A DNA stretch of 64,000 nt from Nitrospirales bacterium (GCA_965223765.1 OZ245016.1:594654-658653); one strand, 5' to 3'; shown: positions 8,342-33,338, numbered from the stretch's first letter. Numbers and translations: made by a program. Notes: generated by a model not told the origin, from the letters alone.

Positions 8342-8373
8342 GGATTGGCAGGAATAGGTGATAGAAGAAAAAG

Positions 8374-9867: not shown

Positions 9868-9976
9868 AACGTCGCTGGTCTGTAGGCTCTAGACACGCGC
9901 ATGACGTCCAAGAGTGGTTCGAAAAGTCTGCGCTGAACAGAAGAGTCTCTATAAAAACATGGCCGCATCTTGATTC

Positions 9977-15189: not shown

Positions 15190-15194
15190 CTCAG

Positions 15195-15419: not shown

Positions 15420-16654
15420 AGCTGCCTCTCACTCTTGCTCCGAAAAAGATATTCCTGCGCGTGTAACACGTATTGTTTCGCGCACAATGCCCGGTTAGGG
15501 TGAATTTTGGATGTGGCGCGCAGCGCCTTTGCCAGCCACTTATGTGCACAATAGATATCTATGAGTGCCGGGTTGAGAGCAATCGCCATGGATTCATATC
15601 CATGAATAAAGGCTTTTTGGACTTCGACGAATCGACCCCGTCCTTTGTCTTTGAATGCAAGCTCAGTCAAAAATGAGGCAACATCATATTCACGGTCGCC
15701 ACATGCCATCCGATCAAAATCCACCAACCCCAATCCCGAGTCGCTGACTAACCACTGCTCTGGATGAAGGTCGGTGTGTAACGGTACAAGCTCTTGCCCA
15801 TTCCATCTCGCGTGAGCCAATTGTAAGTGGTTGAGTAAAGTCTCAACATCAGCCTGCAGATGAGGGTGATGCTGTGTAAGCATCGCACCATGCCTTCTGG
15901 CCTGCCTCAGCACAGTTTTGTTGTCGAATATGATGGTTGAGGATAGGCGACATTGATGAAGCGTCGCGATGGCTTCTCCTATCTTATAAGCCAGAGGAAG
16001 GCCTTTGGCTTCAAGGAGCTGGTGAATGGTAACGGGTGTTCCTGGTACCGTCTTTTGCCACAGTGTTCGCGTTGATCCATCCCATCCAACAGGTTCAGGC
16101 ACAGAAAACCCGAGTGCGCCTCGGTTTGCGACATCCCACAGAGCCATGCCATCCGTGTGAATTCTTTGTCCCACATCAGAATCAAACACCTTCGCAAATT
16201 CCGCGAAGCCGTGTGGGCCTGTCGAGAACTGGATCGTACATCGATGGTGAGGATGATAGTGAACGACGTGTGCCTGGTCACTTGTCATGAGAACATGGCG
16301 CAACATAGGGAGAGCCGGATCTTCAGGAAATCGTGTGAGTCGAAGCCACCCCATCCCGTTCATAAAGATCGTGGTTTCTTCAGCAGATGAAGGTGCCTGA
16401 AGATGTTGTGATAACTCAATCAGGCAAATGTGTTGCAGTTTATCTTGTGTCTGAAAAACAAGCGTGGCGTAGACCTCTTGATAGGGAGAGAATCTTCCTG
16501 ACATACGTGTCCAGATTCGATCTGGTCGCCACCACCCCAAGCGGCTTCCTCTCTCATTAATGGACTCAATAAAGAATTGATCGTCTGAAAGACGGCCGAT
16601 TTGATCGAGTGAACCGGCGTCGAGTAGATCAGGTATCTTTAGGACAGTCGTCAT
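15416..16654 (-). CDS. aminoglycoside-phosphotransferase-family kinase
   Basis: HYHPHHRCT, LHTDLHPEQ, VDFDR, GDREYDVASF. Confidence 0.8.
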   Translation of the reverse strand: MTTVLKIPDLLDAGSLDQIGRLSDDQFFIESINERGSRLGWWRPDRIWTRMSGRFSPYQEVYATLVFQTQDKLQHICLIELSQHLQAPSSAEETTIFMNGMGWLRLTRFPEDPALPMLRHVLMTSDQAHVVHYHPHHRCTIQFSTGPHGFAEFAKVFDSDVGQRIHTDGMALWDVANRGALGFSVPEPVGWDGSTRTLWQKTVPGTPVTIHQLLEAKGLPLAYKIGEAIATLHQCRLSSTIIFDNKTVLRQARRHGAMLTQHHPHLQADVETLLNHLQLAHARWNGQELVPLHTDLHPEQWLVSDSGLGLVDFDRMACGDREYDVASFLTELAFKDKGRGRFVEVQKAFIHGYESMAIALNPALIDIYCAHKWLAKALRATSKIHPNRALCAKQYVLHAQEYLFRSKSERQL

Positions 16655-18087
16655 AGGGATCGTTCCGAGGCTGGGACTAGAGGACCCCCAACCGAAAGGT
16701 ATTGACTGTCTGAAGTCAGGCGATCGATCAGCTTCACGATTCGTTCTATTTTTACGAAGGTTCCTGGTTTGGCCTTTTTAAGACAGCGATACACGCGTTC
16801 AATAACAAGCGCCGTTGCCACATACCATCGTAGGGCAGGTTCGGATACTTCCCAGTTCACCTGCCTTTGGTAACTTTGCAGAAAAACTTTGATGAGTTCA
16901 TCCATTCGAGATTCGGTTAGTCCCACTTCCAGGCCTTGATACAGGAGATAGGAGACGAAACTTCCCAGATCATGGAGTGGTAATCCGATTCCAATATCAT
17001 CGAGATCAATGATGGAAACCGATGTCCCGTCCACAACAAAATTTTTAAAATGTAAATCTCCATGTAAGGTGACAGCGTCGCCTTGTTCGAAGCGAGTAAC
17101 ATTGTTTTTGATAAATGCGACAATATTGTCAAGCGTCTTGATTGTATGAGGTTTCAGACCAGAGAGAGACGGCTTGAAATGCTCTAATTTGGCGAGGCGA
17201 TCTTCCAATATGATCGGTCGGGCTCCCTGAACTGATAAAGAATGAAGAATGGCGACCGTCCTTCCTGCATCTTCCACAAGTTTCGTAAAGTGCGGACTTT
17301 TCATGTTGTACTGCTGCAACGTCGTTCCTGGTACAGCAAGTTGCCATAGCACGTTTTTGGCGCAGTCATACCAAATAGGCTGCGCCATTCTGAATTCACC
17401 AAGTTTTCTTGCCTCGGTCTTCCAGAGGTCGGACATGACAGCATAGGCATGGTTGCCATGGTGTTTATCAGCATAGGTTTTCGCGTACAAAGTCATCGAT
17501 TTCTTTTTGGCCAATTCTCGGCTGTGCAGGTGAAGCATGACTTTCACGGTGCAGCTATACCTGGGGAGGTAATTCATGACTTCCGGCGAGACACGGAGAA
17601 TTGCCCAATCACCTCGAAAGGTATGGGTCAGCAGCTTGGGCAGCCATTGATCTCGTAAACGAGCGGGATCGGTCAGTTCAGGCAGAGCGGTAAGTTTGCG
17701 GTCATTCGGGAAACACCATATGACCATGTCCCATTCTGGTATATGGATTAAGGCTTTTCCGCATGTCGGGGATATCAGTGATTGGGCTCGTGCTTGGGTA
17801 TAACGAGACCATGAATCTCCAGGCTGAAAAATCTGGGCTGAATACAACTGGGCGAACACTTGTTGTGTACCGGTATCGTGAATACTGAGTTGATAGCAAA
17901 CGGTACAGGGTTTGGTCTGTTTGTATTTCACGTAGACTATCTCGCAGTCCGTGACTCTGAATCGGTGTCGTAGTTGTTCGCTCTCAAACAACAGGTCTTG
18001 AAATTTCTCCGACATCGTCGAAGCATCGAGCGCTTTCGACAGTTGAGGGAGTGTGTCATCAGATGGAATATCTCGAGCACCAATCAT
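16651..18087 (-). CDS. aminoglycoside-phosphotransferase-family kinase
   Basis: WCFPNDRKL, LHGDLHFKN, IDLDD, GLPLHDLGSF. Confidence 0.82.
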   Translation of the reverse strand: MIGARDIPSDDTLPQLSKALDASTMSEKFQDLLFESEQLRHRFRVTDCEIVYVKYKQTKPCTVCYQLSIHDTGTQQVFAQLYSAQIFQPGDSWSRYTQARAQSLISPTCGKALIHIPEWDMVIWCFPNDRKLTALPELTDPARLRDQWLPKLLTHTFRGDWAILRVSPEVMNYLPRYSCTVKVMLHLHSRELAKKKSMTLYAKTYADKHHGNHAYAVMSDLWKTEARKLGEFRMAQPIWYDCAKNVLWQLAVPGTTLQQYNMKSPHFTKLVEDAGRTVAILHSLSVQGARPIILEDRLAKLEHFKPSLSGLKPHTIKTLDNIVAFIKNNVTRFEQGDAVTLHGDLHFKNFVVDGTSVSIIDLDDIGIGLPLHDLGSFVSYLLYQGLEVGLTESRMDELIKVFLQSYQRQVNWEVSEPALRWYVATALVIERVYRCLKKAKPGTFVKIERIVKLIDRLTSDSQYLSVGGPLVPASERSL

Positions 18088-18146
18088 AAACAGCTCAGGA
18101 ATGTTTGAGGGATTTCAGAAGGTTCTTTTGCCATAAGACATCTGAG

Positions 18147-20153
18147 CTATCCAACCACATAGCGCCGGAGAAAAGTGTCCGCTCCATTCGTTCGAATCAA
18201 ACAGGTGGCTCCATCGTGCGCAAACCGGTCAAAGGCGTATTCTCCAGGGCATGAGGAATGCCTCACAAAATAATAGTCGTGAAAGATCTGGTCATCTCGC
18301 GAAATCTTGATGCACAGAGCCGAAGCCTGATTTGGCGTGCAGGAACGGTCATCGTGAAAAACAGGCAACTTCTGAACTGATATCCCGGGAGCCTCTGTTT
18401 TATAAGGCATGATAACCGTGTGGTAGCACATACTGGTTTGTCGGCTTGAGAGTTTCACGATAGGGGCTTGATGTTTTGTCCCATACATGCGAGAGATGTA
18501 GCTGTCTTGGATAGTAGGCTGAATGTTCGCGTCCAATGGTTGAGCGAGTATCAGATGGGGCGCATGAATAATGAGCGAATCATTCGAAGCGACACATGAG
18601 GTTTGCCCCCAGGCTTCATCCGAGAGATGAAAGAGCAGATCATAGTCATGAGGGTCTTCAGCGATGATAAGATCAGATAGAATCCAATAGTCTGGCAACA
18701 CAAAAAAGATCTTGCGTTCATGAATGACCCGATATTCATGGCTCTTTGCGATTCCATGGAGGAAGTCAAATCCTGGTTGCGTGGTGAATTTTTGTAATCG
18801 AAAATCTGGCTGGGGCCCTTTGATTTTAAATCGCGTTTTATCAAAGACATAGCGTGTTTGATTTTTTCCGTCGATCAGCACGGTGTTGTGCGCGGCAGTC
18901 TCCCGAAATCGAACGCGCCAATTGATCTGGCCTGATTCGTCATAGGTATAACGTCCTGGGTCAATGATTAAGGATTTTCCATAAGCGGCCATTTCAAAAC
19001 TCAGCAGATCAAAATGCCCATGATTTCCGGCGCCTAGGGGGCCACAATCGAATATCAAATAGCGCTCACCTTCGTAGGGTTCCGACCCATCCCCCCAGCC
19101 ACTGCGGAGAATATAGTAGCCACTATGACTGAATTCCTTGGATCTCTCCTGAGGCGGAGTTCCACGCACACCTTGTGAGGCTACATACCGAAACTCCTGA
19201 TTGCCGTAGAGTTGAAACCCCTGTTCCAGAAGATCCAAGAAATTTCGGCTATCTCCATCACCGAGTGAAGGAATGGTTCCGTCGGGTTTATGGACATAAA
19301 GGGAAAACTCCAAAGCTTTCTGAATCTTCTCATCGACAATGGCAGGAAAAGTGATTTGATTGAGTACGGCCAAACGTCGAACCCACAAAAAATTCTTGAG
19401 GACTAAGTGATGGTAGTCCGTGGATAGTTCGCAATGAACGCCGTCAGGCAACAGATCTGATTGGATGTTCTTGACGAGTTCCGTTTTCGCAAGCTCCAGC
19501 CAGTTAGATGCTTCACGAAGCTCTGGGAAGACGACTCCCGCAAGAAAGATAGAACAGAGCTCCAAGGTCCGGTGGTTGCGTGCAGGCGTGAGATGTGTAC
19601 ACAAATAACTGACTTGTTGGGACAGAGACGAGAGAAACTTCAGGTAAAAATCCGAGTCTATGCGAGCCGTGTGTTCCTGAGTCACGAAAAAGTAATGCGC
19701 AAAAATCCAGTTCTGAATTCGACGTCCCGCAACATCGCTAGGCAAAAAATTGAGTGGAACCAGATTTATCCAGGACTCTGTGAGTTCAACCCATTTATTG
19801 AGACATTTTTGATCTTGGGTGTCGCCAAAGGCCATTCCCAGGCCCACCGCGTAATAAAACTTGTGAAGTAAGATAAGCCATTCCACATCCTGACTTGGAT
19901 TTTGAAGCCACGGAATGGAACGAAGGTTATGATAGACTTCCCCGTTGAACTCGAATGTGTCATCAAGAATGTTTTCGATTTTTTCCCGTCGGGTTTCGAC
20001 AGGATCGATCACGGGGAAATAGGTGACAGATTCTCGGGAACGGAAATGTTCCAAAATGTCTTGAGGGGTCCATTGAGCATACGGTTCCTGAAAAATCGTC
20101 AATGCTGACTGATGCCATTGGCGTGAGGATGTGCGTGAACGTGTCAGTGGCAT
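18147..20153 (-). CDS. heparinase II/III-family polysaccharide lyase-like protein
   Basis: DGVHCELSTDYH, SGYYILRSGW, FDCGPLG..HGHFDLLSF, IDPGRYTY, AAHNTV. Confidence 0.87.
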   Translation of the reverse strand: MPLTRSRTSSRQWHQSALTIFQEPYAQWTPQDILEHFRSRESVTYFPVIDPVETRREKIENILDDTFEFNGEVYHNLRSIPWLQNPSQDVEWLILLHKFYYAVGLGMAFGDTQDQKCLNKWVELTESWINLVPLNFLPSDVAGRRIQNWIFAHYFFVTQEHTARIDSDFYLKFLSSLSQQVSYLCTHLTPARNHRTLELCSIFLAGVVFPELREASNWLELAKTELVKNIQSDLLPDGVHCELSTDYHHLVLKNFLWVRRLAVLNQITFPAIVDEKIQKALEFSLYVHKPDGTIPSLGDGDSRNFLDLLEQGFQLYGNQEFRYVASQGVRGTPPQERSKEFSHSGYYILRSGWGDGSEPYEGERYLIFDCGPLGAGNHGHFDLLSFEMAAYGKSLIIDPGRYTYDESGQINWRVRFRETAAHNTVLIDGKNQTRYVFDKTRFKIKGPQPDFRLQKFTTQPGFDFLHGIAKSHEYRVIHERKIFFVLPDYWILSDLIIAEDPHDYDLLFHLSDEAWGQTSCVASNDSLIIHAPHLILAQPLDANIQPTIQDSYISRMYGTKHQAPIVKLSSRQTSMCYHTVIMPYKTEAPGISVQKLPVFHDDRSCTPNQASALCIKISRDDQIFHDYYFVRHSSCPGEYAFDRFAHDGATCLIRTNGADTFLRRYVVG

Positions 20154-20163
20154 CGAGTTACCC

Positions 20164-21540
20164 TTAATCTACCTTCGGGGCGTATTCGATGGGGGTGCCG
20201 GGTTGAGTGAGTGGAGAAGGAGCGCTGTCAGGTCGGCCGACGCCTTTTTGCCCCGCATGAGACTGGAAGAGACGAGCCAACCCTGAGATATTGGATCGGG
20301 AATCGAACATGTGAAGGACTTTTTTTCTTCCCGCTTTGGCTAATGTTGTTCGAAGTTCTGAGTCGGTTAAAAGTTCTTCTAATGCATCAGCTAAGGCTCG
20401 CGCGTTTTTCTGAGGGACTAACAGGCCGTCTTGTCGGTGTGTGATAAGTTCTGGAATACCTGATACATCAGTCGAGACGATGGGAATTCCACAGGCCATG
20501 GCTTCTGCCAAGACATTCGGAATTCCATCTCGATCCCCATTATCTAAAACATGACAGGCTAACGTGAAAATCGAGGCCTGTTGATAGATTTTGCCTAGTT
20601 GATCTTGCGTGACCCCCGGTTTCAGGGTGAGCGTGTTATCCAGATAAAGCCTGTGTCTTAAGCTTTTGATATGAGATGTCTCTTCATCGAACTCTCCTAA
20701 AATCACACTCTGAAAACGATGTCCCCGTTGTTGGAGGATTCCCAAAGCTTCAACGAGATAGGAAAACCCCTTTTTCTTCACGTGACGCCCAACTGATAGA
20801 ATCACGGGAACGTCGGAGGGGGGGACGGAGGCTGGCAGGAACCGCCCAGTATTGACCCCGTGATACACCCGATGCACTTTGCCTGCATCCTGAGGGAATA
20901 ATCTTTGAAGATGCTCATGGTTAAATCCTGTGCAGGTGGCGACGAAGGTGGTTCGTTGCATCTTGATCGATAACAGGTTCCCAGGGTTTAACTTTGGCAA
21001 ATAAATATCTTTTGCGTGGGCAGTAAAGCTAAAAGGAATACCTGTAAGGGAACTGGCAAACATCGCCATCGTCGTGGCGCCATGACAAAAATGTGCATGG
21101 AGGTGACGAATCGAAGGTGACTGGATTACCTTATTGGCGATAAACCCAGCTCGAAAAAATTCTTTGTACATAGCCTTTTTGGGTTCAAGACCCCAGGTAT
21201 GACGAAGAGAGAAACTAAGCCAGATGGCTTCCATCAACACTTTCACATACTGTAGAGGGCGCTGGGAGAAGAGATGAAGATGAGCCAGGTAATAACGCGG
21301 AACGTTGGCCTTCAGCCACGGCCAAAACGATGAATCAATAGCAGTCGGTTCCTCAGGTAAATACGTGACGGGGCTTTGGATATTGTTGGCCACGAGTGAT
21401 GTTGTGGTCTCCCTGGGAAAGGCTGAAAAAATTTTGAAACGAAATCCCAAGCGTTCAAGTTCATGAATTTCATTCGTGATAAAGGCTTCAGAGTTTCGAG
21501 GAAACCCTTTGAGGATGTAGGCAATAGTAGAGTGGCTCAT
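20164..21540 (-). CDS. GT4 glycosyltransferase
   Basis: FPRNSEAFI, HLHAHF, SFTAHAKDIY, DRDGIPNVLAEAMA. Confidence 0.9.
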   Translation of the reverse strand: MSHSTIAYILKGFPRNSEAFITNEIHELERLGFRFKIFSAFPRETTTSLVANNIQSPVTYLPEEPTAIDSSFWPWLKANVPRYYLAHLHLFSQRPLQYVKVLMEAIWLSFSLRHTWGLEPKKAMYKEFFRAGFIANKVIQSPSIRHLHAHFCHGATTMAMFASSLTGIPFSFTAHAKDIYLPKLNPGNLLSIKMQRTTFVATCTGFNHEHLQRLFPQDAGKVHRVYHGVNTGRFLPASVPPSDVPVILSVGRHVKKKGFSYLVEALGILQQRGHRFQSVILGEFDEETSHIKSLRHRLYLDNTLTLKPGVTQDQLGKIYQQASIFTLACHVLDNGDRDGIPNVLAEAMACGIPIVSTDVSGIPELITHRQDGLLVPQKNARALADALEELLTDSELRTTLAKAGRKKVLHMFDSRSNISGLARLFQSHAGQKGVGRPDSAPSPLTQPGTPIEYAPKVD

Positions 21541-22736
21541 GGTAGTACGACTTGGTAATGCTCAGATGTTGATTGTTTTTCTTGAGCATCAGATGTGATT
21601 TGCTTGAAAAGATTGTGAATCACACCAATGTTCTTGGATACACAAAAATCCTCTTCCACGGTTCTTCTTGCCGCGGTGCCTAATCGTTTTCGATGCTTAG
21701 GGTTTTGGAGTAGCATTTTTAACACTTCAGCCAATGTTTCCGGTTCACCGGGCAGAGTCAAAATCCCATCGTGGCCATCATGGATGAGCTCAGGAATGCT
21801 GGCGATAGCCGTAGAAACGACTGGGAGACCCATCGCCATGGCTTCGACAAGGACATTGGGGATGCCATCACGGTCACCATCTTCGGCAATTTGACAAGGC
21901 AAGACGAAGACGGAGGTCTTCTGATACCAGTCGATAATGCCATTCTGCGGCATTTTCCCCAGGAGGCGAACACAATCACTGATGTCAAATTGGTGAATCA
22001 TCTGTTTCAGGCTCTGTTCGAGCGGGCCATAGCCCACCAGCACACATTGGAAGTGGCACCCAGCTCTTTTTAGTGAGGCACAGGCTTGAATGAGAACAGG
22101 GAACCCTTTTTTGGGACGGAACCGTCCGATGCTCAGAATTAGCGGGCGCGTTTCATCTCTACCAAAAATTTCTTGGGAGTTAGTATGGAACACATTCAGA
22201 TCCACCCCGTGGTAGACCCGATAAATTGGTATATCGGAATGGACGCATTCTTCCAGATAATTTTTGTTGTACTCGGTACAGGTCAGAACGAACTGTGCTC
22301 TAGTCACCTTACGCGATAAATCTTCCTTAGATGAAAGGAAGAGATCTTTGGCATGGGTGGTAAAGCTATAAGAGATTCCGGTGAGGGTATGTACCTGTAG
22401 GGCTACGTCGGTGGGTTCGGAGACATAATGAGCATGAAGATGTGTGATGCCATATTCATGAACCTTTTCAGTGACCCATTCGGTCCACAAGAATTGTTGG
22501 ATGACGTTCCCCTTTCCTCCATTGAATACAACAGGTCCATACAATACTGGAGCCTTGAGTTGACGAATATGTGGGTGTGTCTCTGTGTCAGAGGGGGGGC
22601 GTAAAGAGAGGACGACAAGATTCAGCCCGAGACGTTCTAGTTCCAGTATTTCTTGAAGAATAAATGTCTCCGACAGTTTCGGAAAAATCTTGACGAGATA
22701 CCCAATCGTTGGTACCGCGTTTGATGTAGATGACAT
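21537..22736 (-). CDS. GT4 glycosyltransferase
   Basis: FPKLSETFI, HLHAHY, SFTTHAKD, DRDGIPNVLVEAMA. Confidence 0.9.
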   Translation of the reverse strand: MSSTSNAVPTIGYLVKIFPKLSETFILQEILELERLGLNLVVLSLRPPSDTETHPHIRQLKAPVLYGPVVFNGGKGNVIQQFLWTEWVTEKVHEYGITHLHAHYVSEPTDVALQVHTLTGISYSFTTHAKDLFLSSKEDLSRKVTRAQFVLTCTEYNKNYLEECVHSDIPIYRVYHGVDLNVFHTNSQEIFGRDETRPLILSIGRFRPKKGFPVLIQACASLKRAGCHFQCVLVGYGPLEQSLKQMIHQFDISDCVRLLGKMPQNGIIDWYQKTSVFVLPCQIAEDGDRDGIPNVLVEAMAMGLPVVSTAIASIPELIHDGHDGILTLPGEPETLAEVLKMLLQNPKHRKRLGTAARRTVEEDFCVSKNIGVIHNLFKQITSDAQEKQSTSEHYQVVLP

Positions 22737-22759
22737 ATGAATCTGACTGCCTCATGCGA

Positions 22760-24082
22760 TCATGCGGGTTGTAGCAAGGCATGATGGAAGGGTTCTATAG
22801 GGTAATGTCTCTTTTGACTATCGGAACGAGCATGACCCCAGCTTCCATTCATTAATAAATTCAGGATAGCCATAGTAAGGGTGGGTAAGGCATTGAGGTT
22901 TACAGCAGGTCCAGGGGTTAGGTTTCTTAGATCGTGGGGTTGGCATAAAAGACCTTCTAATTTTTCACAGAAAGAATCTGGGTTGAGTTTGTCTGGATGA
23001 ATCGCTTGGAACCACCCTAATTTCGCCATGCGCTGGGCACGTATCCATTGTTCTTCAACGGGGCGCGTTCTTGGAATTACTAATGCTGGTTTGCGTAAGG
23101 AGAGTAATTCACAAATGGTTCCATACCCACCCATGGATACGGCTACATCTGCGGCATCTAGGTAACTCATCACATCATCGGAAAAAGTCAGTGTCCTGAG
23201 GGAAGGCCATTGAGAGGCTTGAAGCTCTAATTCAAGACGAGTGGCTTCGGGCATTTCTGGACCGAAAATCAGAGTGCTGTACACTCGCTTGTGTTGAGAT
23301 ATGCGTGGCATGCTTGCCAGGTATTGTTGAAAAAGCTGCACACCATCTTCCCCCCCTCCGGCAGTGACGAGCACCATTTGATCATCTGCCGTCAGGCCTA
23401 ATTTCTTTCTCATATGTTCTCGGGTATGTTGTCCTGACTCTCGACGGAGATATCCACAATATTGGGTTTTGAGTTGAAGCGCTGGCGGGAACTGATATTC
23501 TGAACAGGCTTTGAACACTTCTGGAGAGCCTAGTACAAAAATACGATCGTAATGGGCTTCGAGCGCTTGAAAGTATTTCTGCTTTTTCCAGATGGCTCGT
23601 GTTACCTGTGGACTATCCAGAATGTCACGCAACAAAAGTGTGACGATGGTTTCAGGATGATAGGTTTTTAAATGGGCTAACGCTGGCTCCAATTCATTCT
23701 CGACCCCATAGGGTTTTTTGTCGACGATGACCATGTCAGGTTGAAAATTTACTAATGCGGCGAGAATGAGCTCAGTTCGGAGTTTGACGATGTCCCGCGT
23801 ATGTTCCTTCAGATATTTTGGGCCATAGCCATTGCATTTTGTTCGGGAAAGACAGGGCAATTTAATATAGTCAACACCCTCTGGGATGCGAAAACTATGC
23901 ACCATTGGAGAACCAGAAATGATCAAAATGGACAGGTCGGGAATCGACTTCATGAGAAATTGGCAAATAGAGAGGGTTCGACGAATGTTTCCCAACCCAA
24001 AGGTATCGTGGGAATAAAAGACTACCCGCTTAGTGTTCGCATTGACCATGTCTTTGAATTTTTTGAGTGAATGGAGTTTCAT
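22760..24082 (-). CDS. GT-B glycosyltransferase (GT28-like), first gene of the glycan operon
   Basis: YSHDTFGLGNIRR, YIKLP, LRDILD, VTAGGGEDG, SMGGYGT, EQWIRA. Confidence 0.85.
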   Translation of the reverse strand: MKLHSLKKFKDMVNANTKRVVFYSHDTFGLGNIRRTLSICQFLMKSIPDLSILIISGSPMVHSFRIPEGVDYIKLPCLSRTKCNGYGPKYLKEHTRDIVKLRTELILAALVNFQPDMVIVDKKPYGVENELEPALAHLKTYHPETIVTLLLRDILDSPQVTRAIWKKQKYFQALEAHYDRIFVLGSPEVFKACSEYQFPPALQLKTQYCGYLRRESGQHTREHMRKKLGLTADDQMVLVTAGGGEDGVQLFQQYLASMPRISQHKRVYSTLIFGPEMPEATRLELELQASQWPSLRTLTFSDDVMSYLDAADVAVSMGGYGTICELLSLRKPALVIPRTRPVEEQWIRAQRMAKLGWFQAIHPDKLNPDSFCEKLEGLLCQPHDLRNLTPGPAVNLNALPTLTMAILNLLMNGSWGHARSDSQKRHYPIEPFHHALLQPA

Positions 24083-24563: not shown

Positions 24564-24613
24564 GGTTTTGGTTCCATCGCAGGTTGATAATGGGCAGACT
24601 ATAGCAATGCCAT

Positions 24614-24684
24614 ATGAAGGAGCCGTGAGGATAAGATGAAAGGTTGGTGAGAAGTACATGAGAATTTGATGAGAGCCTGATGGA
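24614..24684 (-). promoter_or_regulatory. array of seven OmpR/PhoB-type direct repeats, 11-bp period
   Basis: plus strand ATGAA, GTGAG, ATGAA, GTGAG, ATGAG, ATGAG, ATGGA at 24614, 24625, 24636, 24647, 24658, 24669, 24680. Confidence 0.7.
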
Positions 24685-24862
24685 TTCAGTCTTGTAATGA
24701 GATGGGGTCCCTCCTAAAGAGGGGTAGAAAAGGACGACTTGAATGTCATCAGGAAAAATTAACGTAGCGGCTTAAGGAGACGGACCGGCATAGACAACTC
24801 GGAAAACGAGAGATTAAGTTTAGAGGAAACTTAACAGCGAAGTGGTTGAAGAATACTTCTCT

Positions 24863-24938
24863 TGTCATGCCCGCAGTACCAAGCGGACATCCAGTGCTCA
24901 TGCAGAAAACCTAGATTCCCGCCTTCGCAGGAATGACA
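24863..24938. repeat. REP/RPE-like palindromic element
   Basis: TGTCATGCCCGC...CATCCAG...CTAGATTCCCGCCTTCGCAGGAATGACA, the GTCAT...ATGAC double-hairpin architecture. Confidence 0.65.
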
Positions 24939-25002
24939 TGGTTCCCAAAATTCCGACCGCTCCTGTCGTAAACTTCATCGGACATTGTCTGAGAGATATA
25001 AT

Positions 25003-25680
25003 CTAAGTTTCTACCATCGAAATTTTATAGCCGACGTCTCGCACTGTCTGAATGAGCTTCCGTGAAAACCCTTTGTCTATTTTATTACGCAAATAGCGAA
25101 TGTAGACATCCACGACATTAGTGGGCGTGTCGTAGTGGTATCCCCACACTTGTTCCAAAATCATCGTTCGGCTTAGGGGACGATTGGGGTGGGACATCAG
25201 ATATTCCAGTAAGGCAAATTCTTTGGCCGTCAGTGTAATGGGTAGTCCAGCTCGCGTGACTTCGTGTGTTTCTTTATTGAGGCAAAGGTCTTGAATATTG
25301 AGGGTGGTTGGAATGTCTTGATAATTGCCACGGCGGAGGAGTGCTTGGATCCTGGCCAGTAACTCTTCAAACGCAAAGGGCTTGGTTAAATAATCATCCG
25401 CTCCGGTTTGCAAACCTTCCACTTTATCCTGGAGCCCATCTCGTGCTGTCAGCATTAAGATGGGAGTATGAATCTTGTCTTTTCGTAAGATTCGACAAAT
25501 TTCCGTGCCATTCATCCCTGGGAGAAGAAGATCAAGAATAATCAGGGTATACGGATTTCTTCCATACTCCAGGCCTTCTTCTCCGTTGAGTGCGACATCC
25601 ACATGATATCCTTCGGCTTCTAGACCTCGTTTGACAAAACTGACAATGCGTTGGTCATCATCTACGAGGAGAAGATCCAT
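25003..25680 (-). CDS. OmpR-family response regulator
   Basis: REC domain (IILDLLLP, GADDYLTKPF) plus winged helix (LTAKEFALLEYL, NVVDVYIRYLR, IQTVRDVGY). Confidence 0.93.
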   Translation of the reverse strand: MDLLLVDDDQRIVSFVKRGLEAEGYHVDVALNGEEGLEYGRNPYTLIILDLLLPGMNGTEICRILRKDKIHTPILMLTARDGLQDKVEGLQTGADDYLTKPFAFEELLARIQALLRRGNYQDIPTTLNIQDLCLNKETHEVTRAGLPITLTAKEFALLEYLMSHPNRPLSRTMILEQVWGYHYDTPTNVVDVYIRYLRNKIDKGFSRKLIQTVRDVGYKISMVET

Positions 25681-25732
25681 TGAAATGGGTTATTTCAGAT
25701 TGGCAGTGTAGGTTCCTTGTTTTCTCTAGGGG

Positions 25733-25761
25733 TTAGACGGATGAACTTGGGAAAAGTAAAT
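25733..25761 (-). promoter_or_regulatory. putative ECF sigma promoter
   Basis: minus strand ATTTAC-N16-CGTCTAA, 53 nt upstream of ATG 25680. Confidence 0.65.
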
Positions 25762-25875
25762 GAACCTCTCCTCAGATCATCAAGGGAGGTTCTTGAACAA
25801 TGGAAGAATCTTGATTGTTGTGGGTCCTCTACGAAGGAACGGAGAGGGGGCTGGAGGAGAAGGGAGGGAGGAGGA

Positions 25876-26544
25876 TCACTCAGAAATCTTATAACCGATG
25901 TCACGAACCGTCTGGATCAGTTTTGGCGAAAAACCTTTATCTATCTTGTTCCGTAGATAGCGGATATACACATCGACGACATTGGTGAGTGGATCATGGT
26001 GTTGCCCCCACACCTGTTCAATAATCATGGTTCGGCTTAAGGGGCGGTTAGGACGAGACATGAGGTATTCCAACAACGCAAATTCTTTGGCCGTCAGTGA
26101 GATGGATTGTCGTCCTCTAGTGACCTCGCGGGTTTCTTTGTTTAAACACAGGTCGCCCACTTCGAGGACTGCGGATGTCTCTTGGTAGGTGCCTCGTCGG
26201 ATAAGAGCCTGGATTCGGGCTAGCAATTCTTCGAAGGCAAAAGGCTTCGTTAAATAATCGTCAGCACCAGTTTGAAGACCTTCAATCTTATCTTGAAGCG
26301 CATCTCGCGCCGTGAGCATTAAAATTGGGGTACGGATACCTTCTTGCCTTAGCGTCTGGCAAATTTCCTTTCCTGTAAGATCGGGTAAAAATATATCTAG
26401 AAGAATGACCCCATAATTTCCTCTTCCCGACTCTAACCCTTGCGGTCCAGTATTCGCTGTATCGACTTGAAAGCCTTCGGCCTCTAAGCCCCGTTTGACG
26501 AACTGGGTAATACGTTCATCATCCTCGATGAGGAGTAGTCTCAT
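25876..26544 (-). CDS. OmpR-family response regulator, close paralog of 25003..25680
   Basis: same REC and winged-helix motifs; overlaps the histidine kinase 3' end. Confidence 0.93.
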   Translation of the reverse strand: MRLLLIEDDERITQFVKRGLEAEGFQVDTANTGPQGLESGRGNYGVILLDIFLPDLTGKEICQTLRQEGIRTPILMLTARDALQDKIEGLQTGADDYLTKPFAFEELLARIQALIRRGTYQETSAVLEVGDLCLNKETREVTRGRQSISLTAKEFALLEYLMSRPNRPLSRTMIIEQVWGQHHDPLTNVVDVYIRYLRNKIDKGFSPKLIQTVRDIGYKISE

Positions 26545-28399
26545 GTAAGATCTCGTCAGCTACGGCTTGTTGGACAAAACGCAGGGTCACAGTAGTGCCT
26601 TTCTCTGGAAGACTGGAAAAACGAATTGTACCCCCATGAGCCTCAGTAATCCATTTGGCTATGGCTAAGCCCAGTCCGGCGCCAGGTTGGGTATGGTCTT
26701 TGATGCGATGCCCCCTGTAAAAGCGATCAAAAATATGAGGAAGGTCTTTTTCGGCAATACCTTGCCCTTGGTCCATGATCTCAATGGTCGTGTATCGGGA
26801 AACCGCGTTGAGACGTATCTGGATGTGACTATTGGAATCGGAATACTTGATCGCGTTATCCAGGAGAATGAGCAACAGTTGTTTCAACCGTTGAGGGTCA
26901 CCATAGATTCGGCTTGAGGCTAGAGGATCCATGAATGTGACTATGCTGTGTTTTTTCTGAGCCAGAATGGCGGCTTCCTGCAGCACGTCTTGTAAAAGAT
27001 TTTCGAGATCGACTTCCGTTTTGGTGATTTGAATCGTCCCGGTTTCTGAACGGGCGAGAAAGAGGAGATCACTCACTAGTTTATTCACTTCTTCTGTCAA
27101 TTGAACAATGCGTTCCAAGGAGGTTTTATAGTCCAGAATGGGTTTGTCTTTTCCCCTCAGAGTGACTTCGGCTTCTCCCCGAATGACGGTGAGGGGTGTG
27201 CGGAGTTCATGGCTGATGTCGGCAAAAAACTGTGACCGTAGTTGGTCGAGTTCTTTTAACCGGGCATTGGCTTTTTCCAATGCAGCCTGAGCCTTTTTCC
27301 GTTCTGTGATGTCCTGGGCCAAACAGGCAATGCCTTGAATGGTCCCATTGGTTTCCTTCATTGTGGCCGCCGAAATTAAAATGGGGACCAACGTTCCCAG
27401 TTTTGTCCGGTAACAGCTCTCGACATGGCCAAAACTGCCTTCTTTGAGCAATTGCCTCATCCGTTCTGGGGTCAAGAGATTCTGGGTGGGTGGGAATAGG
27501 ACTCCGATATGTTGGTTGATGAGTTCATCCCGTTGGTAGCCTAAGAGCTTCTCCGCCGAACGGTTCATTGATTGGATGATGCCCTCGTGATCCAAGACGA
27601 CTAAGCAGTCCAACATCGATCGTAAAATACTATCCAAGTATTCCTTTGAGACCGTGGTTTGATAAAGTCGTTCTGTCATTTGGTTGAAACCAGTGGCCAA
27701 TTTCCCTAACTCGTCAGTTGCATGAACTGGTACGGATACATCCAGTTGGCCTGAGGCCACTTGTTGAATAGCGCTTGTAAGGGGCTCAATAATTTTGAGA
27801 GATTGGCGGAGTAGAAGGACTAAAATGCTTCCTCCGAATAACGTCGTGAGACCATTGATCACAAGGGTTTGTTGGAGAAGATTCTTGAGTCGCTCTTCCA
27901 GTGGATTGCGATCAAGCAGAATTCGTATCCATCCAATAAATAGTTGGGAATCTTGTGGACCAGGAATATCAGGATGAGAGTCAGGGCTTCGACGAATCAC
28001 CACGTTGATGAATTGGGATATTGATGCACCCTCATGGAGCATGGTGTCTTGCTGAAAGACCGGGGCCATACTGGGTAATTCAATCTCTGATTCAGTCAAT
28101 TCCACGATAGAAGATTCAATCCAGAGGGATTGAGAAGCGTCGTATGCGAGAACAGCTAACACCCCTTCTGCCTCTCCGAGAGATTGTAAGAGTGAGGTAA
28201 ATCCTTCAACGTCTTGTGTGTGATAATAGATTCTTGATTCAGAGGCGATCGCTTTGGCCAGTTCTCGCCCACGGATATGGAATTCCTCGAACATGGCCTC
28301 TCGCGTGGCCTGATAGGTGAAATAAGTCAAAACGCCGATGGCACCGATTAAGATAATCAGCGCGATAGCCAATAGTTTTTGCCACAAGCGAAAATGCAT
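26519..28399 (-). CDS. sensor histidine kinase (2 TM, periplasmic domain, HAMP, PAS, HisKA, HATPase)
   Basis: DELGKLATGFNQM, ADISHELRTPL, LLDNAIKYS, DQGQGI, GAGLGLAI. Confidence 0.93.
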   Translation of the reverse strand: MHFRLWQKLLAIALIILIGAIGVLTYFTYQATREAMFEEFHIRGRELAKAIASESRIYYHTQDVEGFTSLLQSLGEAEGVLAVLAYDASQSLWIESSIVELTESEIELPSMAPVFQQDTMLHEGASISQFINVVIRRSPDSHPDIPGPQDSQLFIGWIRILLDRNPLEERLKNLLQQTLVINGLTTLFGGSILVLLLRQSLKIIEPLTSAIQQVASGQLDVSVPVHATDELGKLATGFNQMTERLYQTTVSKEYLDSILRSMLDCLVVLDHEGIIQSMNRSAEKLLGYQRDELINQHIGVLFPPTQNLLTPERMRQLLKEGSFGHVESCYRTKLGTLVPILISAATMKETNGTIQGIACLAQDITERKKAQAALEKANARLKELDQLRSQFFADISHELRTPLTVIRGEAEVTLRGKDKPILDYKTSLERIVQLTEEVNKLVSDLLFLARSETGTIQITKTEVDLENLLQDVLQEAAILAQKKHSIVTFMDPLASSRIYGDPQRLKQLLLILLDNAIKYSDSNSHIQIRLNAVSRYTTIEIMDQGQGIAEKDLPHIFDRFYRGHRIKDHTQPGAGLGLAIAKWITEAHGGTIRFSSLPEKGTTVTLRFVQQAVADEILHETTPHRG

Positions 28400-28404
28400 G
28401 GGAA

Positions 28405-28845
28405 TTAGTCACCCTCCTCCTGGAGAATGAATACGACTTTGACGTTGTCATTAACCTTTGACAGACTTACGTACCCAATGGCCCCTTCAATGGCAGACAC
28501 AAAACGGATGACGGCTTCCTCGGATCGCTGGATGAGACTTTGGACGGCTACCGGAGTTCCCTGTCTGAAAAATTGTTGGTTGGATTTGGCGTTGAGTACT
28601 TTCTCATAAAATACGCCTCGAACAGGGGAGGCAATCTCCCGGTTGACCAATTTGATTCGACCCCCATCTGACCAATGGAGTTCCTCTCCCCGATACATCG
28701 CGGCAATGTTCGTTTTTGTCAGAGACGTGACTGGATTGTTGTTGTTCACGATGACGGCTAAAGATTCCGCCTGGGCTAACGAACCGCTCCATAAGCTGAT
28801 TGCTAGGATCCAACTCATAAACCGGTAGAGGTGTTTGCAAGGCAT
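28405..28845 (-). CDS. small periplasmic binding-protein-like protein (phosphate-SBP-like family)
   Basis: signal peptide; AVIVNNNNPV..LTK...W.DG..I.L; V..FV....GAIGYV. Confidence 0.72.
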   Translation of the reverse strand: MPCKHLYRFMSWILAISLWSGSLAQAESLAVIVNNNNPVTSLTKTNIAAMYRGEELHWSDGGRIKLVNREIASPVRGVFYEKVLNAKSNQQFFRQGTPVAVQSLIQRSEEAVIRFVSAIEGAIGYVSLSKVNDNVKVVFILQEEGD

Positions 28846-28863
28846 GTGTAACCAGATAGATGT

Positions 28864-30147
28864 TTAAAACAACCAGGCGATTGACGCGATGAAGCCATTC
28901 CAGTTCTTTCGCTCAATGCCGCCGTTATTGATTTGGTATTCAGTTTTGAGGACGTAGTTTTCTATAGGGCGATAATTTAAGCCTGCGGTAAATCGATCTT
29001 CCGTCAAATTGCCACTGCCTGCCTTCGTTGTAATGCGAGCATGGTCATATCGGCCGACAAGCGTGAACGTGGGGTGAGTATAGGGTTCTCCCAAAAAAGT
29101 CTGATCCAAAAAACGCGGCCAGAAGTGATAATTGACTTGGACATAATATCCATATAACCGAGAAGGGGTTCGGGATCCTTGGATGTCAAAATGCGCGAAC
29201 TCTCCCTTGAATTCAAAGTCTTCCCAGAACGGGACACCTCGAGGTTTCAATTCCAAATCCACGTCAAAACCAGTGATCGTTTTTCCATTCCTGGGGCTTG
29301 AGGCTCCACGATATCCACTCACCCCTATTTCATATTGATCAGCAAGCTTTACAGTGGCTCGCCCGACCACAGCTTTTTGTCCATTGTTATCTCGGGTCAA
29401 CGGAGATCTGGCATCTTGAAGGCCGCCGTTAGTGGGAGAAAATTGATCAGTCAGTCCATTAATCACTGCGACTTCATAGGTGCTCACTATATTGGAAGAC
29501 CAAGGGACAAGGCCGAAGAGACTTGCTCCCAAATCCCCCCATGTTGTGGGAACAATTTGGCGGGCAACCAGTGGTCGATCGGTCAAGTCGCGTCTGGGAT
29601 CAAAATGGTCTAAATTAAATTTTCCAAACGGGACCAACACAACCCCTCCCCGTAAATTGATCCATTTGGCGATAAGCAGATCAACGTAGGCTTGTTCCGC
29701 ATGAACTTCTCCTTCAGGAATGCCGAGATCAATTTCATTATAAAAACGAATGCGGTCATGAATTTGTCCAGCAATGAGGACTTCGAGTTTGCCTTCGAAA
29801 GAGGTTTTTGCTCCGGCGAACGTTTCGAATTCAACAGCTCCATATCCTCCGAGGATAACCCGTTGGGAAATGTCATCCAGAATGGAGTTTTGTTGCATTT
29901 CAAGGGCCTCCACGCGGTCCTTCAGGGCTTGAATGTCCTGTTCATACACGTCTTCTTTTTTCACCATTTGAGACTGAGCGGCATCGGAGGTTTGTTCTTG
30001 GGCACCAAATCCCCAGGATGGGCTCAGCATGATTCCCAATACGGTTACACAGAGCCACAAACGAATGTATGGGTTTCGGACGAACCTTGATGGGGATGAA
30101 TTTGCGATATGAGATTGATGGTCGAGTAAAACGTTAAGACATACCAT
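28864..30147 (-). CDS. outer-membrane porin with N-terminal coiled coil
   Basis: EQAYVD, PFGKFN, DRPLV, PTTW.DLG, AGLNYRP, terminal AWLF; ATG 30147 overlaps the upstream TAA. Confidence 0.75.
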   Translation of the reverse strand: MVCLNVLLDHQSHIANSSPSRFVRNPYIRLWLCVTVLGIMLSPSWGFGAQEQTSDAAQSQMVKKEDVYEQDIQALKDRVEALEMQQNSILDDISQRVILGGYGAVEFETFAGAKTSFEGKLEVLIAGQIHDRIRFYNEIDLGIPEGEVHAEQAYVDLLIAKWINLRGGVVLVPFGKFNLDHFDPRRDLTDRPLVARQIVPTTWGDLGASLFGLVPWSSNIVSTYEVAVINGLTDQFSPTNGGLQDARSPLTRDNNGQKAVVGRATVKLADQYEIGVSGYRGASSPRNGKTITGFDVDLELKPRGVPFWEDFEFKGEFAHFDIQGSRTPSRLYGYYVQVNYHFWPRFLDQTFLGEPYTHPTFTLVGRYDHARITTKAGSGNLTEDRFTAGLNYRPIENYVLKTEYQINNGGIERKNWNGFIASIAWLF

Positions 30148-30800
30148 TAGGAAGACCTCTTGAAAATTGGAGCGATGATCCAATGTGGGAAATGATGAGT
30201 GGAATGAGAGGAGGGGGCAAATAGGTGTTGGCCATGCCGAGGAGAAAATTTCCAATGATGAGTTGGTGGACGCGTTTGATTGGCCGGACTATCAAAGTCG
30301 GGTTGTTGAAGTTCTTGAATAATGAGATGAAGCTCATTCTGATGAATAAAACAGAATCCCTTGGTGTAGAGATCGCTAGTTTGTTCATTACGTGCTCTGA
30401 AAGCGATAACTTCTTCAGGAAGAGCTTGCCTAAAAGCTTTAGGGAGTTCCGAGGCCAGAAGACTTAATTGATATTCTGTAAAGGTGGAATGTTGGTTCCC
30501 CATATGGGAGGAAAACAGTTCGCTTTGGCGATAATAAATATTATGTAAAAGCTCTCGAAGTTGAGTGGTCTCAAGATCAGCAGGGTGGGAAAGATTGGTG
30601 ACGATGGGATACCCGCTTGGCCATTCCTGAAGATCAACCCATTCGGTCTCGGTTTGGTATATGGACAGATGAACCGGTGAGCCACAGGAGACGAGAAACA
30701 TGAGAGTGAGGCATATGCTCACCACAAAGACGGAACGAACAATTTTGGTGTAAGGGGGCCGGGAAAGATGGGCTTTAATGTTGTGCGCGGAGACTAGCAT
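30147..30800 (-). CDS. putative lipoprotein
   Basis: lipobox-like FLVSC after a hydrophobic stretch; head of the porin-SBP-HK-RR operon. Confidence 0.6.
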   Translation of the reverse strand: MLVSAHNIKAHLSRPPYTKIVRSVFVVSICLTLMFLVSCGSPVHLSIYQTETEWVDLQEWPSGYPIVTNLSHPADLETTQLRELLHNIYYRQSELFSSHMGNQHSTFTEYQLSLLASELPKAFRQALPEEVIAFRARNEQTSDLYTKGFCFIHQNELHLIIQELQQPDFDSPANQTRPPTHHWKFSPRHGQHLFAPSSHSTHHFPHWIIAPIFKRSS

Positions 30801-31033
30801 CCCAATTCACGCGAACGAAGCACCATAGCCAAATTCCTAATGTCGCAGTGCGTGAAAGGTTGGCTGAAATGTATGTCGTCCATTTCAGGGGCATCTCTAG
30901 ATAAACCACTCGAGTTGGATCATCATATTACTATAAGGTCAAAACTCTTTGCATGTTATGAATTCTATCTAGGCGAGGGAGAAGGCCCCATCAGAACAGA
31001 CACAACTGCAATGACCATTGCCGTCTCATTCTA

Positions 31034-31081
31034 ATGAGGAAAAATGAGAAATCCATGAGAAAAAGATGACAATTACATTAA
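31034..31081 (-). promoter_or_regulatory. OmpR/PhoB-type direct-repeat array
   Basis: plus strand ATGAG, ATGAG, ATGAG, ATGAC, ATTAA at 31034, 31044, 31055, 31066, 31077 (spacing 10, 11, 11, 11); same motif as 24614..24684. Confidence 0.62.
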
Positions 31082-31126
31082 AACCCCTGATCTGGGTCTC
31101 CTCGCAATGAGGTTGCTTCCGTACCG

Positions 31127-31159
31127 TTTGACAAAGCCCAGAGAGTGGGCTTTGTCAAA
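31127..31159. terminator. hairpin, likely terminator
   Basis: TTTGACAAAGCCCA-5nt-TGGGCTTTGTCAAA perfect 14-bp stem overlapping the stop of 31155..31616. Confidence 0.7.
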
Positions 31160-32013: not shown

Positions 32014-32604
32014 ATGGATGACTCCTTGGAGAGTCAGAAGGAAGCTCGGCTCATTGTTCGATGTCAGCAAGGCGATCAAGAAGCGATCAGTCTATTGATT
32101 GAGAGATATGGAGATCGTGTTGTCAACGTGATTGGTCGAATCATCGCCAATCCAACCGACGCGCATGACGTGGCTCAAGAGACGTTTGTCGCAGCGTTCA
32201 AGGCCATTGGCAACTTTCGAGCCGATAGCCGGTTTTCGACCTGGATTCATCGAATTGCGGTCAATAAAGCTAAGGACTACCTACGCGTGCAAGGCCGACG
32301 GCAACATAGAGAAGCACCGACCAGCGGCGACAAAGACGGACAGAACTCCGTCTTGGAAATTAGCGATGAACGAACACCAGAGCATGAAGCGTCAGAAAAG
32401 CAGATGGCTTATCATATGGAACAAGCCATTCAAGGATTGTCTCCGCTCTATCGAGAAGCATTCGTGCTCAAACATGTGGAAGGGATGGACTATGAGGAAA
32501 TGGTTGAGGTACTTGGAGTCGGAAAAGATGTCCTGAAAATGCGAGTCTATAAAGCCAGAATCAAACTATCTAAAGAGTTGATGTGGCTCAAGGAGGATGT
32601 ATGA
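32014..32604 (+). CDS. ECF RNA polymerase sigma factor
   Basis: DAHDVAQETFVAAF, FSTWIHRIAVN (region 2), LSPLYREAFVLKHVEGMDYEEM...RVYKAR (region 4). Confidence 0.92.
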   Translation: MDDSLESQKEARLIVRCQQGDQEAISLLIERYGDRVVNVIGRIIANPTDAHDVAQETFVAAFKAIGNFRADSRFSTWIHRIAVNKAKDYLRVQGRRQHREAPTSGDKDGQNSVLEISDERTPEHEASEKQMAYHMEQAIQGLSPLYREAFVLKHVEGMDYEEMVEVLGVGKDVLKMRVYKARIKLSKELMWLKEDV

Positions 32605-33338
32605 CCATGGGACAGCATTTAGATATCCACGACGATGAGGAAGAGTTGAACGATCGAGATTGGTTGGTTCAACGCTTTGTCGATCAAGATCTCTTACCAC
32701 AAGAACGGATCGAATTTTTACGGGAGATGGATCGTGATCCAATCTTGCGTCGACAGGTGTTGGCAACTGAGCAGATACTGTTGCAGGCCACTCAACTACC
32801 TCGAACGACAGCATCGGTTGGATTGAAGGAGCAGGTCTTACAACAGCTGCTTTCTTCCAACAAGACTAACAGGAAATGGTGGGAATCAGCATGGTCGATG
32901 TTGTTTGCACCCCGTGTATTGGAATGGAATCCAGCAATCGCCTTGACTGCGGCATGCTTGCTGGTTGGCGTGCTCTGGATGATCAAGCCGTCGACAATTC
33001 CCGATGACCCCACCGTCACACCCCCTACAGCTTTCGTCAAGACTCGTGAGTCAGGGGATGCTCAGAGCCTAGTCATGGTTCGACTCGTTTTATTAGCACC
33101 CCAAGCCCAATCAGTGGCTGTGGCAGGAGATTTTAATGGCTGGAAGCCTGAAGAAACTCCCTTGCAACCTACAGAAGGTGGAGCCTGGACGGTGACGTTA
33201 CAGGTTCATCCGGGCCGATATCACTACATGTTTGTTGTCGATGATGAGTCTTGGGTCACTGATCCCTTTGCAGGTGAATATAGTGCTGACGGGTTTGGGG
33301 CCAAAAATGCGATCTTGGATGTCTCTCATGTTCTTTAA
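32601..33338 (+). CDS. putative anti-sigma factor with a C-terminal glycogen-binding (CBM48/AMPK-beta E-set) domain
   Basis: ATGA overlap with sigma; cytoplasmic N-terminus, one TM, then APQAQSVAVAGDFNGW...GRYHYMFVVD..WVTDP...DGFGAKN. Confidence 0.85.
   Translation: MTMGQHLDIHDDEEELNDRDWLVQRFVDQDLLPQERIEFLREMDRDPILRRQVLATEQILLQATQLPRTTASVGLKEQVLQQLLSSNKTNRKWWESAWSMLFAPRVLEWNPAIALTAACLLVGVLWMIKPSTIPDDPTVTPPTAFVKTRESGDAQSLVMVRLVLLAPQAQSVAVAGDFNGWKPEETPLQPTEGGAWTVTLQVHPGRYHYMFVVDDESWVTDPFAGEYSADGFGAKNAILDVSHVL

Follow-up and report, generated by a model that had tools for sequence, protein, structure and literature searches.

Phased direct-repeat arrays and ECF-type promoters as candidate control elements of a glycan gene cluster in a Nitrospirales bacterium

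We identified two arrays of direct repeats with an 11-bp period in a gene cluster of a Nitrospirales bacterium (GCA_965223765.1 OZ245016.1:594654-658653). The stretch analysed, referred to here as the window, comprises 64,000 nucleotides (nt) of one strand, and the arrays are found between positions 24,614 and 31,081. The window lies inside a complete 3.79-Mb genome, which is the sequence used for all genome-wide scans, from a marine Nitrospira-like organism (Nitrospirota, order Nitrospirales, family Nitrospiraceae). Array 1 precedes a gene for a receiver-only response regulator that stands ahead of a run of glycan genes. Array 2 precedes an operon encoding a lipoprotein, a porin-like protein, a PstS-like substrate-binding protein (SBP), a sensor histidine kinase, and an OmpR-family response regulator (RR), RR1. 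A second OmpR-family regulator, RR2, is encoded next to RR1, and a pair of genes for an extracytoplasmic function (ECF) sigma factor and its anti-sigma factor diverges from the cluster. The arrays are probably tandem head-to-tail sites for RR1, RR2 or both, located in activator-dependent class II sigma-70 promoters of the PhoB type. The larger proposal, a feed-forward loop that joins the ECF sigma factor, the response regulators and the glycan genes, has in our estimate slightly better than an even chance of being correct as a whole.

On the plus strand, array 1 consists of the pentamers ATGAA, GTGAG, ATGAA, GTGAG, ATGAG, ATGAG, and ATGGA, which start at positions 24614, 24625, 24636, 24647, 24658, 24669, and 24680, a period of exactly 11 bp. 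The first-pass annotation of this DNA, made from the sequence alone, had counted seven RTGAR-like pentamers at exact 11-bp spacing between 24614 and 24684. Six of them and the spacing hold, but the seventh, ATGGA, is degenerate and is not kept in the closest relatives. All of the cluster genes lie on the minus strand, and in that sense the functional repeat reads YTCAY, or TTCTCAT in its extended form. Read on the coding strand, array 1 and the sequence that follows it are AATCCAT cagg CTCTCAT caaa TTCTCAT gtac TTCTCAC caac CTTTCAT ctta TCCTCAC ggct CCTTCAT atggcattgc TATAGT. The receiver gene has its start codon 31 nt beyond this candidate -10 element. One extra CTCAT (24697-24701) lies out of phase, 17 bp upstream of the array, and is not kept in all relatives.

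Array 2 has the plus-strand pentamers ATGAG at 31034, 31044, and 31055, ATGAC at 31066, and ATTAA at 31077, with gaps of 10, 11, 11, and 11. These had been described as five pentamers (31034-31081) similar to those of array 1. They are real repeats and do lie ahead of the lipoprotein operon, but only three are good in-phase units and the spacing is not exact throughout. The strong, conserved, in-phase units are those at 31044, 31055, and 31066; the copy at 31034 falls inside the 10-bp gap before the candidate -10 element, and the copy at 31077 is degenerate. The coding-strand sequence is TTTTAAT gtaa TTGTCAT cttt TTCTCAT ggat TTCTCAT ttttcctcat TAGAAT. A palindrome, CTCAT-TAGA-ATGAG, overlaps the -10 element (31028-31039), and it too is not kept in all relatives.

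Arrangements of this kind are very rare in the genome. Three phased RTGAR pentamers occur four times in the window, always in array 1, and three phased ATGA sequences occur once, in array 2, with 0.01 occurrences expected in each case from dinucleotide shuffles. A run of six RTGAR at a period of 11 is unique in the genome, and the other periods from 8 to 14 give runs of three at most. At least four RTGA at 11 +/- 1 bp are found in three runs in the genome, two of which are arrays 1 and 2, 6.4 kb apart on the same strand. These regular-expression scans were not trained on the arrays, and with the shuffles they argue against a chance origin. A weight matrix that was trained on the array sites gave scores of 52.0 and 42.9 for the two arrays and 29.2 for the next site in the genome. 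Below, a strict array means at least three YTCAY at 11 +/- 1 bp, and a composite pattern means three units, 10 bp, and TANNNT. The genome scan revealed no other convincing members of a regulon, only weak three-unit matches that lack the composite architecture, with the exception of a promoter at 3079154 that belongs to a paralogous operon (discussed below).

At each array, exactly 10 bp separate the final in-phase heptamer from a TANNNT hexamer. The repeating unit of 11 nt has about seven conserved and four variable positions, and is present six to seven times in array 1 and three to four times in array 2. A consensus scan found no full sigma-70 -35/-10 pair at either array; the only sigma-70 matches were unrelated ones with 9 of 12 positions, at 25050-25022 and 30959-30930, and these were no more numerous than in shuffled sequence. 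The arrays could instead be repressor operators, with RR1 or RR2 occluding the promoter and switching the glycan operon off. The sites do overlap the -35 position, and some members of the OmpR family are repressors. We consider this improbable, given that there is no -35 consensus to occlude, that the 10-bp distance to the -10 element is fixed in about 28 promoters, as is the hallmark of PhoB-type activation, and that a repressor site would not need exact phasing to the -10 element. The anatomy supports PhoB/PhoP-type operators at which a bound activator would take the place of the -35 element.

The closest parallel is the Pho box of Escherichia coli. The pstS promoter, whose sequence and position we checked, reads CTGTCAT aaaa CTGTCAT attc CTTACAT ataa CTGTCAC ctgtttgtcc TATTTT and lies 38 nt before pstS; TATTTT is its -10 element. 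Both systems have tandem 11-nt units on the coding strand, 10 bp to the -10 element, and no -35 element, and the CTGTCAT of pstS, a promoter with four phased heptamers, shares xTxTCAT with the TTCTCAT found here. They differ in the core, which is CTCAT here and GTCAT in E. coli, in the six to seven units of array 1, and in the downstream genes, a glycan operon and a porin-SBP-kinase operon in place of phosphate uptake genes. PHO boxes are known to be 11-nt direct-repeat units that are bound head to tail (PMC4415409). In Streptomyces, PhoP operators have up to six units and are bound cooperatively (PMC2275107); in S. coelicolor poorly conserved units are occupied cooperatively from core units, and a 10-nt unit impairs binding (PMC2275107). 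The complex class III operators of S. coelicolor PhoP thus resemble ours in being arrays of up to six 11-nt units, and their core, GTTCACC, shares TTCAC with several of our units. That system belongs to another phylum, regulator clade, and regulon, and for the arrays described here binding is predicted from sequence.

Despite their resemblance to Pho boxes and to Streptomyces PhoP operators, the arrays lie outside the Pho regulon, which was rejected as an assignment. In the PhoB equivalog model TIGR02154, with a cut-off of 296.2 bits, RR2 and RR1 scored only 203.7 and 192.1, and a better PhoB candidate, with 262.9 bits, is encoded elsewhere in the genome (2043355-2044032). The best named subfamily for both regulators is TIGR01387 (the heavy-metal regulators CusR/CopR/HprR), with 239.4 and 235.4 bits; these scores are likewise under the cut-off of 279.2, and membership in the CusR/CopR group was rejected. 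The CusR box is an inverted repeat with the half-site ATGACAA. This half-site resembles the ATGAGAA and ATGACAA sequences found here, but our repeats are direct and the cluster contains no metal-resistance genes.

Conservation in related genomes, which the first-pass annotation had proposed as a check, bears the arrays out. We compared 38 related Nitrospiraceae loci (583 kb). The gene order lipoprotein, porin, SBP, kinase, regulator, receiver, GT440, GT399, GT458, lyase is kept in many of them, including those from Nitrospira and from comammox-type metagenome-assembled genomes. The operon strand carries 18 strict arrays and 26 composite patterns, the opposite strand none of either. Strict arrays are found in just two places. 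One is behind the RD-rich gene and before the lipoprotein operon; the other is past the regulator genes, where the arrays precede the receiver gene or ugd if the locus contains those genes. Of 19 receiver-gene homologues in the related loci, 18 have an array ahead of them, in every case on the operon strand. Array 2 is far more restricted, with an array ahead of the lipoprotein operon in 6 of 36 loci, all of them from the window's own clade. When the promoters were aligned on the -10 element, the consensus was TTCTTAT caat TTCTCAT ctc. cTCTCAt ..gc cTCTCAT (10 bp) TA.ggT, and the information content was periodic. The number of units is six in array 1 of the closest relatives (loci L029 and L033) and three to four in Nitrospira proper.

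The same two relatives have a third array, of four units, before a UDP-glucose 6-dehydrogenase gene (ugd) located between RR2 and the receiver gene (L029:16438-17968 and L033:19509-19546), a position that fits a glycan regulon. In the window ugd is missing, and the 437-bp spacer in its place contains two hairpins (24934-24915 and 24750-24733). In L022 and L030, array 2 and the conserved lipoprotein gene are separated by three additional genes for small lipoproteins, one of which has a glycine-zipper-like segment (6131-7574 in L022 coordinates), and array 2 still heads the enlarged operon.

In 41 genomes of the order there were 42 matches to the composite pattern and none to its reversed control. 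Of these matches, 25 have a Trans_reg_C gene (an OmpR-type winged-helix gene) on the same strand no more than 6.5 kb away; from the 101 Trans_reg_C genes in the 19 genomes searched, we estimate that chance would give fewer than one. These comparisons essentially refute the idea that the arrays are accidental, slippage-derived tandem repeats or merely curved DNA. Phased A-tracts in array 2 could bend the helix, but array 1 has no A-tracts, dinucleotide shuffles predict almost no such runs, matches to the opposite strand or the reversed pattern are absent, and in more than 25 genomes the heptamers are conserved while the spacers diverge; nor do the T, A, and last T of the -10 element vary between genomes. 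We regard this explanation as barely credible.

The repeats might also act as RNA, in a transcribed leader that forms a structure or is the target of an RNA-binding protein. The distance between array 2 and its first gene would give a long leader in any case. A search of Rfam with positions 23900-32100 found no RNA family even at E <= 1, however, and array 2 is directly behind a strong hairpin that ends the preceding gene. The fixed 10 bp to TANNNT and the strict 11-nt period are features of a DNA helix, and the linkage is to genes for DNA-binding regulators. A role in RNA therefore seems very unlikely to us. Hairpins behind RR2 and at the end of the RD-rich gene imply that both arrays head transcription units.

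RR1 and RR2 are the natural candidates for proteins that bind the arrays. Each has a Response_reg and a Trans_reg_C domain, they are 74% identical, their recognition helix (TNVVDVYIRYLRNKID) is the same, and theirs are the only winged-helix genes in the cluster. The genome encodes a further OmpR-type regulator (genome 3,080,256) in a paralogous operon (C1:3079154-3082370) for a PepSY-like protein of 117 amino acids, a membrane protein of 166, the regulator of 225, and a kinase of 477. The promoter of this operon (3079154), TTCTTCAT gat TTCTTCAT gggt CCCTCAT + 10 bp + TATGGT, has the architecture described above with three units of the TTCAT type, and the same promoter type precedes similar paralogous operons in many relatives. 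The arrays could accordingly be operators for this paralogue, or for an unlinked regulator, a reading also favored by the occurrence of TTCAT-type units in array 1. Yet arrays travel with the regulator-containing cluster through several genera, as the receiver loci demonstrate, and their units differ in composition: CTCAT makes up 38 of 78 units in the cluster arrays, whereas TTCAT makes up 82 of 96 in the paralogue promoters. This difference suggests that the two sets of sites have related but distinct specificities. With distinct specificities, and with RR1 and RR2 as the sole winged-helix proteins in cis, the cluster's own regulators would be the ones that read the cluster arrays, and we give operators of another factor little credence.

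The second kind of element in the cluster is a promoter motif of the ECF type. The window contains four copies of TTTAC-N15-18-CGTCTAA, where 0.04 would be expected, and all four belong to the cluster; the genome has six copies altogether. The copy that precedes the sigma gene, GTTTAC-N17-CGTCTAA, is invariant in an alignment of four genomes, a finding that points to autoregulation, and its distance from the sigma gene is 63 nt in five relatives, with one more relative at 65 nt. An ECF promoter ahead of one of the local regulators had been predicted, and this is borne out by the motif before RR2 (25733-25760), its recurrence in the genome, and its position in relatives, where it lies 55-59 nt before RR2 in L029, L032, and L033 and 37-50 nt before the single regulator gene in nine Nitrospira-type loci, 12 loci in total. 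In 13 Nitrospira-type loci that lack array 2, the motif occurs before the lipoprotein operon head. Of 27 loci, 22 have the motif ahead of the regulator gene or of the operon head. In Nitrospira proper (L042, L043, L044, L045, L048, L049, L051, L057, L062, and L064) the operon head has GTTTAC-N16-CGTC(A/T)xA and no repeat array, so that in those organisms the sigma factor would stand above the whole two-component system.

Other occurrences of the motif are found outside the cluster. A variant, GTTTAC-N17-TGTCTAA, is present in the window at 35882-35908 on the minus strand, 73 nt before an open reading frame (ORF) of 344 amino acids (34775-35809), and there are two perfect TTTAC-N16/17-CGTCTAA elsewhere in the genome, at 546870-546897 (minus strand) and 1375015-1375043 (plus strand). 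It is possible that these sites mark extra members of the sigma regulon.

The proposed circuit would begin with phosphorylation of RR1, RR2 or both by the kinase. The phosphorylated regulator would oligomerize head to tail on the 11-nt units, spreading cooperatively over the weaker ones, and would stand in for the missing -35 element, recruiting RNA polymerase to a promoter that has only a -10 element. At array 2 this would produce positive autoregulation of the lipoprotein-porin-SBP-kinase-RR1 operon in this clade. At array 1 it would drive the receiver-only gene and, by read-through, the glycan operon of about 17 kb; the gap between the two (24082-24108) is 25 bp, and no terminator was found there. 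The ECF sigma factor, reading GTTTAC-N16/17-CGTCTAA, would drive its own gene, the RD-rich gene, RR2, and a second promoter before GT440, whose transcript would omit the receiver-only gene. ECF input would thus reach the glycan genes both directly and by way of RR2, which would constitute a coherent feed-forward loop acting on two tandem promoters. At the level of motifs, all three edges occur together in L029, L039, L046, L055, and the window.

Several observations weigh against this interpretation or parts of it. The ECF motif precedes GT440 in only 7 of 18 related loci, and what ties the adjacent sigma factor to GTTTAC..CGTCTAA is only the motif before its own gene. The array-2 promoter is about 230 nt before the lipoprotein start, implying a long leader, and the weak sigma-70 match at 30959-30930 is a possible alternative. 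We found no counterpart of array 2 among the loci of Nitrospira proper that were compared, where ECF-type promoters are found instead, and autoregulation is therefore not a general feature. The -10 elements are TANNNT matches, from which we infer their identity. Three array-1 units are of the TTCAT type. The genome also encodes the paralogous regulator, whose motif is a related TTCAT, so that cross-binding is possible. The weight matrix and the composite regular expression were built post hoc, when the sites were already known; independent evidence comes from the difference between the strands, the reversed control, and the proximity to regulator genes. Considering all of this, the suggestion in the first-pass annotation that the local OmpR regulators autoregulate and co-activate the glycan operon has comparative and architectural support, with autoregulation through array 2 confined to one clade. 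Its scheme of an ECF factor acting on the operon both through a response regulator and directly agrees with the motifs before RR2 and GT440, although the direct arm is limited by the patchy distribution of the GT440 promoter.

In CseBC-SigE of Streptomyces and PorXY-SigP of Porphyromonas, an ECF sigma factor and a two-component system are arranged in series over envelope or surface functions. The Porphyromonas system has been described as a cascade of this kind (PMC12152298). The cluster described here would share the wiring in series, with two differences. In both known systems the two-component system is above the sigma factor, whereas in the present case it is the regulator gene, or the whole two-component operon, that follows the sigma motif, and the target here carries two tandem promoters, one of each type.

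A more extended proposal, which we offer tentatively and think somewhat doubtful, is that the cluster represents a previously undescribed dual-input circuit over the export of an acidic or phospho-glycan throughout the Nitrospiraceae. An ECF sigma factor with a carbohydrate-binding (CBM48) anti-sigma factor would control an OmpR-type regulator, and both would act on the glycan operon through tandem promoters. As speculation, the receiver-only paralogue, present on the regulator-driven transcript alone, could be a phosphate sink or a dimer poison. The regulator arm would then give a self-limiting pulse and the sigma arm sustained expression. The growth from three to four units to six to seven in the marine clade would tune cooperativity and threshold.

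The features of the cluster are collected in Table 1. Profile searches confirmed the neighborhood as originally described, with a receiver, two OmpR-type regulators, a kinase, an SBP, a porin, a lipoprotein, and an ECF sigma factor. The genes from receiver to lipoprotein, the glycan run, and the RD-rich gene are all on the minus strand, where the order is RD-rich gene, array 2, lipoprotein, porin-like protein, PstS-like binding protein, kinase, RR1, RR2, array 1, receiver, and glycan run; the sigma and anti-sigma genes are divergent.

Table 1. Coordinates of genes and sequence elements in the window (kb, kilobases; E, expectation value)
Feature	Position	Strand	Remarks
Glycan gene run, co-oriented, about 17 kb	6716..24082	-	Content by profile search; terminal ORF 6716-8341 outside scan
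Receiver-only response regulator, 152 amino acids	24108..24566	-	First gene behind array 1; Pfam Response_reg, E = 5.9e-26
ECF-type promoter GGTTTAC-N16-CGTCTAA	24108..24135	-	Directly before GT440; -10 overlaps receiver stop codon
Candidate -10 TATAGT	24598..24603	-	10 bp past last repeat; no -35 consensus; counterparts TACAGT and TACCGT in L029 and L033 at equal distance
Array 1	24614..24686	-	11-bp period; six units kept in L029 and L033
Array 1 heptamer CCTTCAT	24620-24614	-	
Array 1 heptamer TCCTCAC	24631-24625	-	
Array 1 heptamer CTTTCAT	24642-24636	-	
Array 1 heptamer TTCTCAC	24653-24647	-	
Array 1 heptamer TTCTCAT	24664-24658	-	
Array 1 heptamer CTCTCAT	24675-24669	-	
Array 1 heptamer AATCCAT	24686-24680	-	Degenerate, distal
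Terminator-like hairpin after RR2	24915..24934	-	Separates RR2 transcript from array-1 promoter
RR2, OmpR-family, 225 amino acids	25003..25680	-	Domain search
ECF-type promoter ATTTAC-N16-CGTCTAA	25733..25760	-	Before RR2
RR1, OmpR-family, 222 amino acids	25876..26544	-	Domain search
Sensor histidine kinase, HAMP + PAS + HisKA + HATPase	26519..28399	-	Domain search
PstS-like binding protein	28405..28845	-	Synteny kept across related loci
Porin-like protein	28864..30255	-	Synteny kept across related loci
Lipoprotein	30147..30800	-	Synteny kept across related loci
Candidate -10 TAGAAT	31028..31033	-	10 bp past last in-phase repeat; T, A, and final T invariant in four genomes
Array 2	31034..31083	-	Core TTCTCAT 31050-31044, TTCTCAT 31061-31055, TTGTCAT 31072-31066
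Array 2 extra copy CCTCAT	31039-31034	-	Within 10-bp gap
Array 2 extra copy TTTTAAT	31083-31077	-	Degenerate, distal
Perfect 14-bp inverted repeat TTTGACAAAGCCCA / TGGGCTTTGTCAAA	31127..31159	-	Overlaps RD-rich stop codon; terminator-like, no T-run; upstream of array 2
RD-rich exported protein, 170 amino acids	31155..31667	-	ORF
ECF-type promoter GGTTTAC-N16-CGTCTAA	31755..31782	-	Before RD-rich gene
ECF-type promoter GTTTAC-N17-CGTCTAA	31925..31953	+	Before sigma gene
ECF sigma factor	32014..32604	+	Domain search
Anti-sigma factor with CBM48 domain	32583..33338	+	Domain search

The glycan run encodes a GT28-like protein, two GT4 proteins, a heparinase II/III-like lyase, three APH-type kinases, a second GT28-like protein, an ABC exporter, and an alginate-export-type porin. 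The receiver-only protein keeps the KPFAF dimerization segment of the OmpR family, and its identity to the receiver domains of the regulators is about 42%. Its gene starts with the ATG at 24566. A longer ORF, 24108-24659, which would have made array 1 coding, was rejected because homologues, including that of L029, begin at the equivalent methionine and the longer form is not conserved. In the kinase homologues of L029, L032, L033, and L030, the window kinase matched as two blocks 350-870 nt apart, which suggests an extra domain or an insertion. In the genome G022, the regulator genes are about 10 kb downstream of the kinase.

Nitrospira and its relatives are key nitrite oxidizers and include the comammox organisms, and to our knowledge there are essentially no genetic tools for them. 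Our literature search on this cluster found no paper. The analysis provides a candidate regulon, conserved in the family and defined by TTCTCAT at an 11-bp period followed by 10 bp and a -10 element, together with a candidate regulator and the ECF motif GTTTAC-N16/17-CGTCTAA, and this regulon could be tested in vitro or in E. coli. The target pathway is a cluster for glycan synthesis and export, plausibly serving the formation of a matrix or biofilm. Since the design is of the ordinary PhoB/PhoP type and not a new principle, its value would lie in annotation and in opening the regulation of surface polymers in Nitrospira to study.

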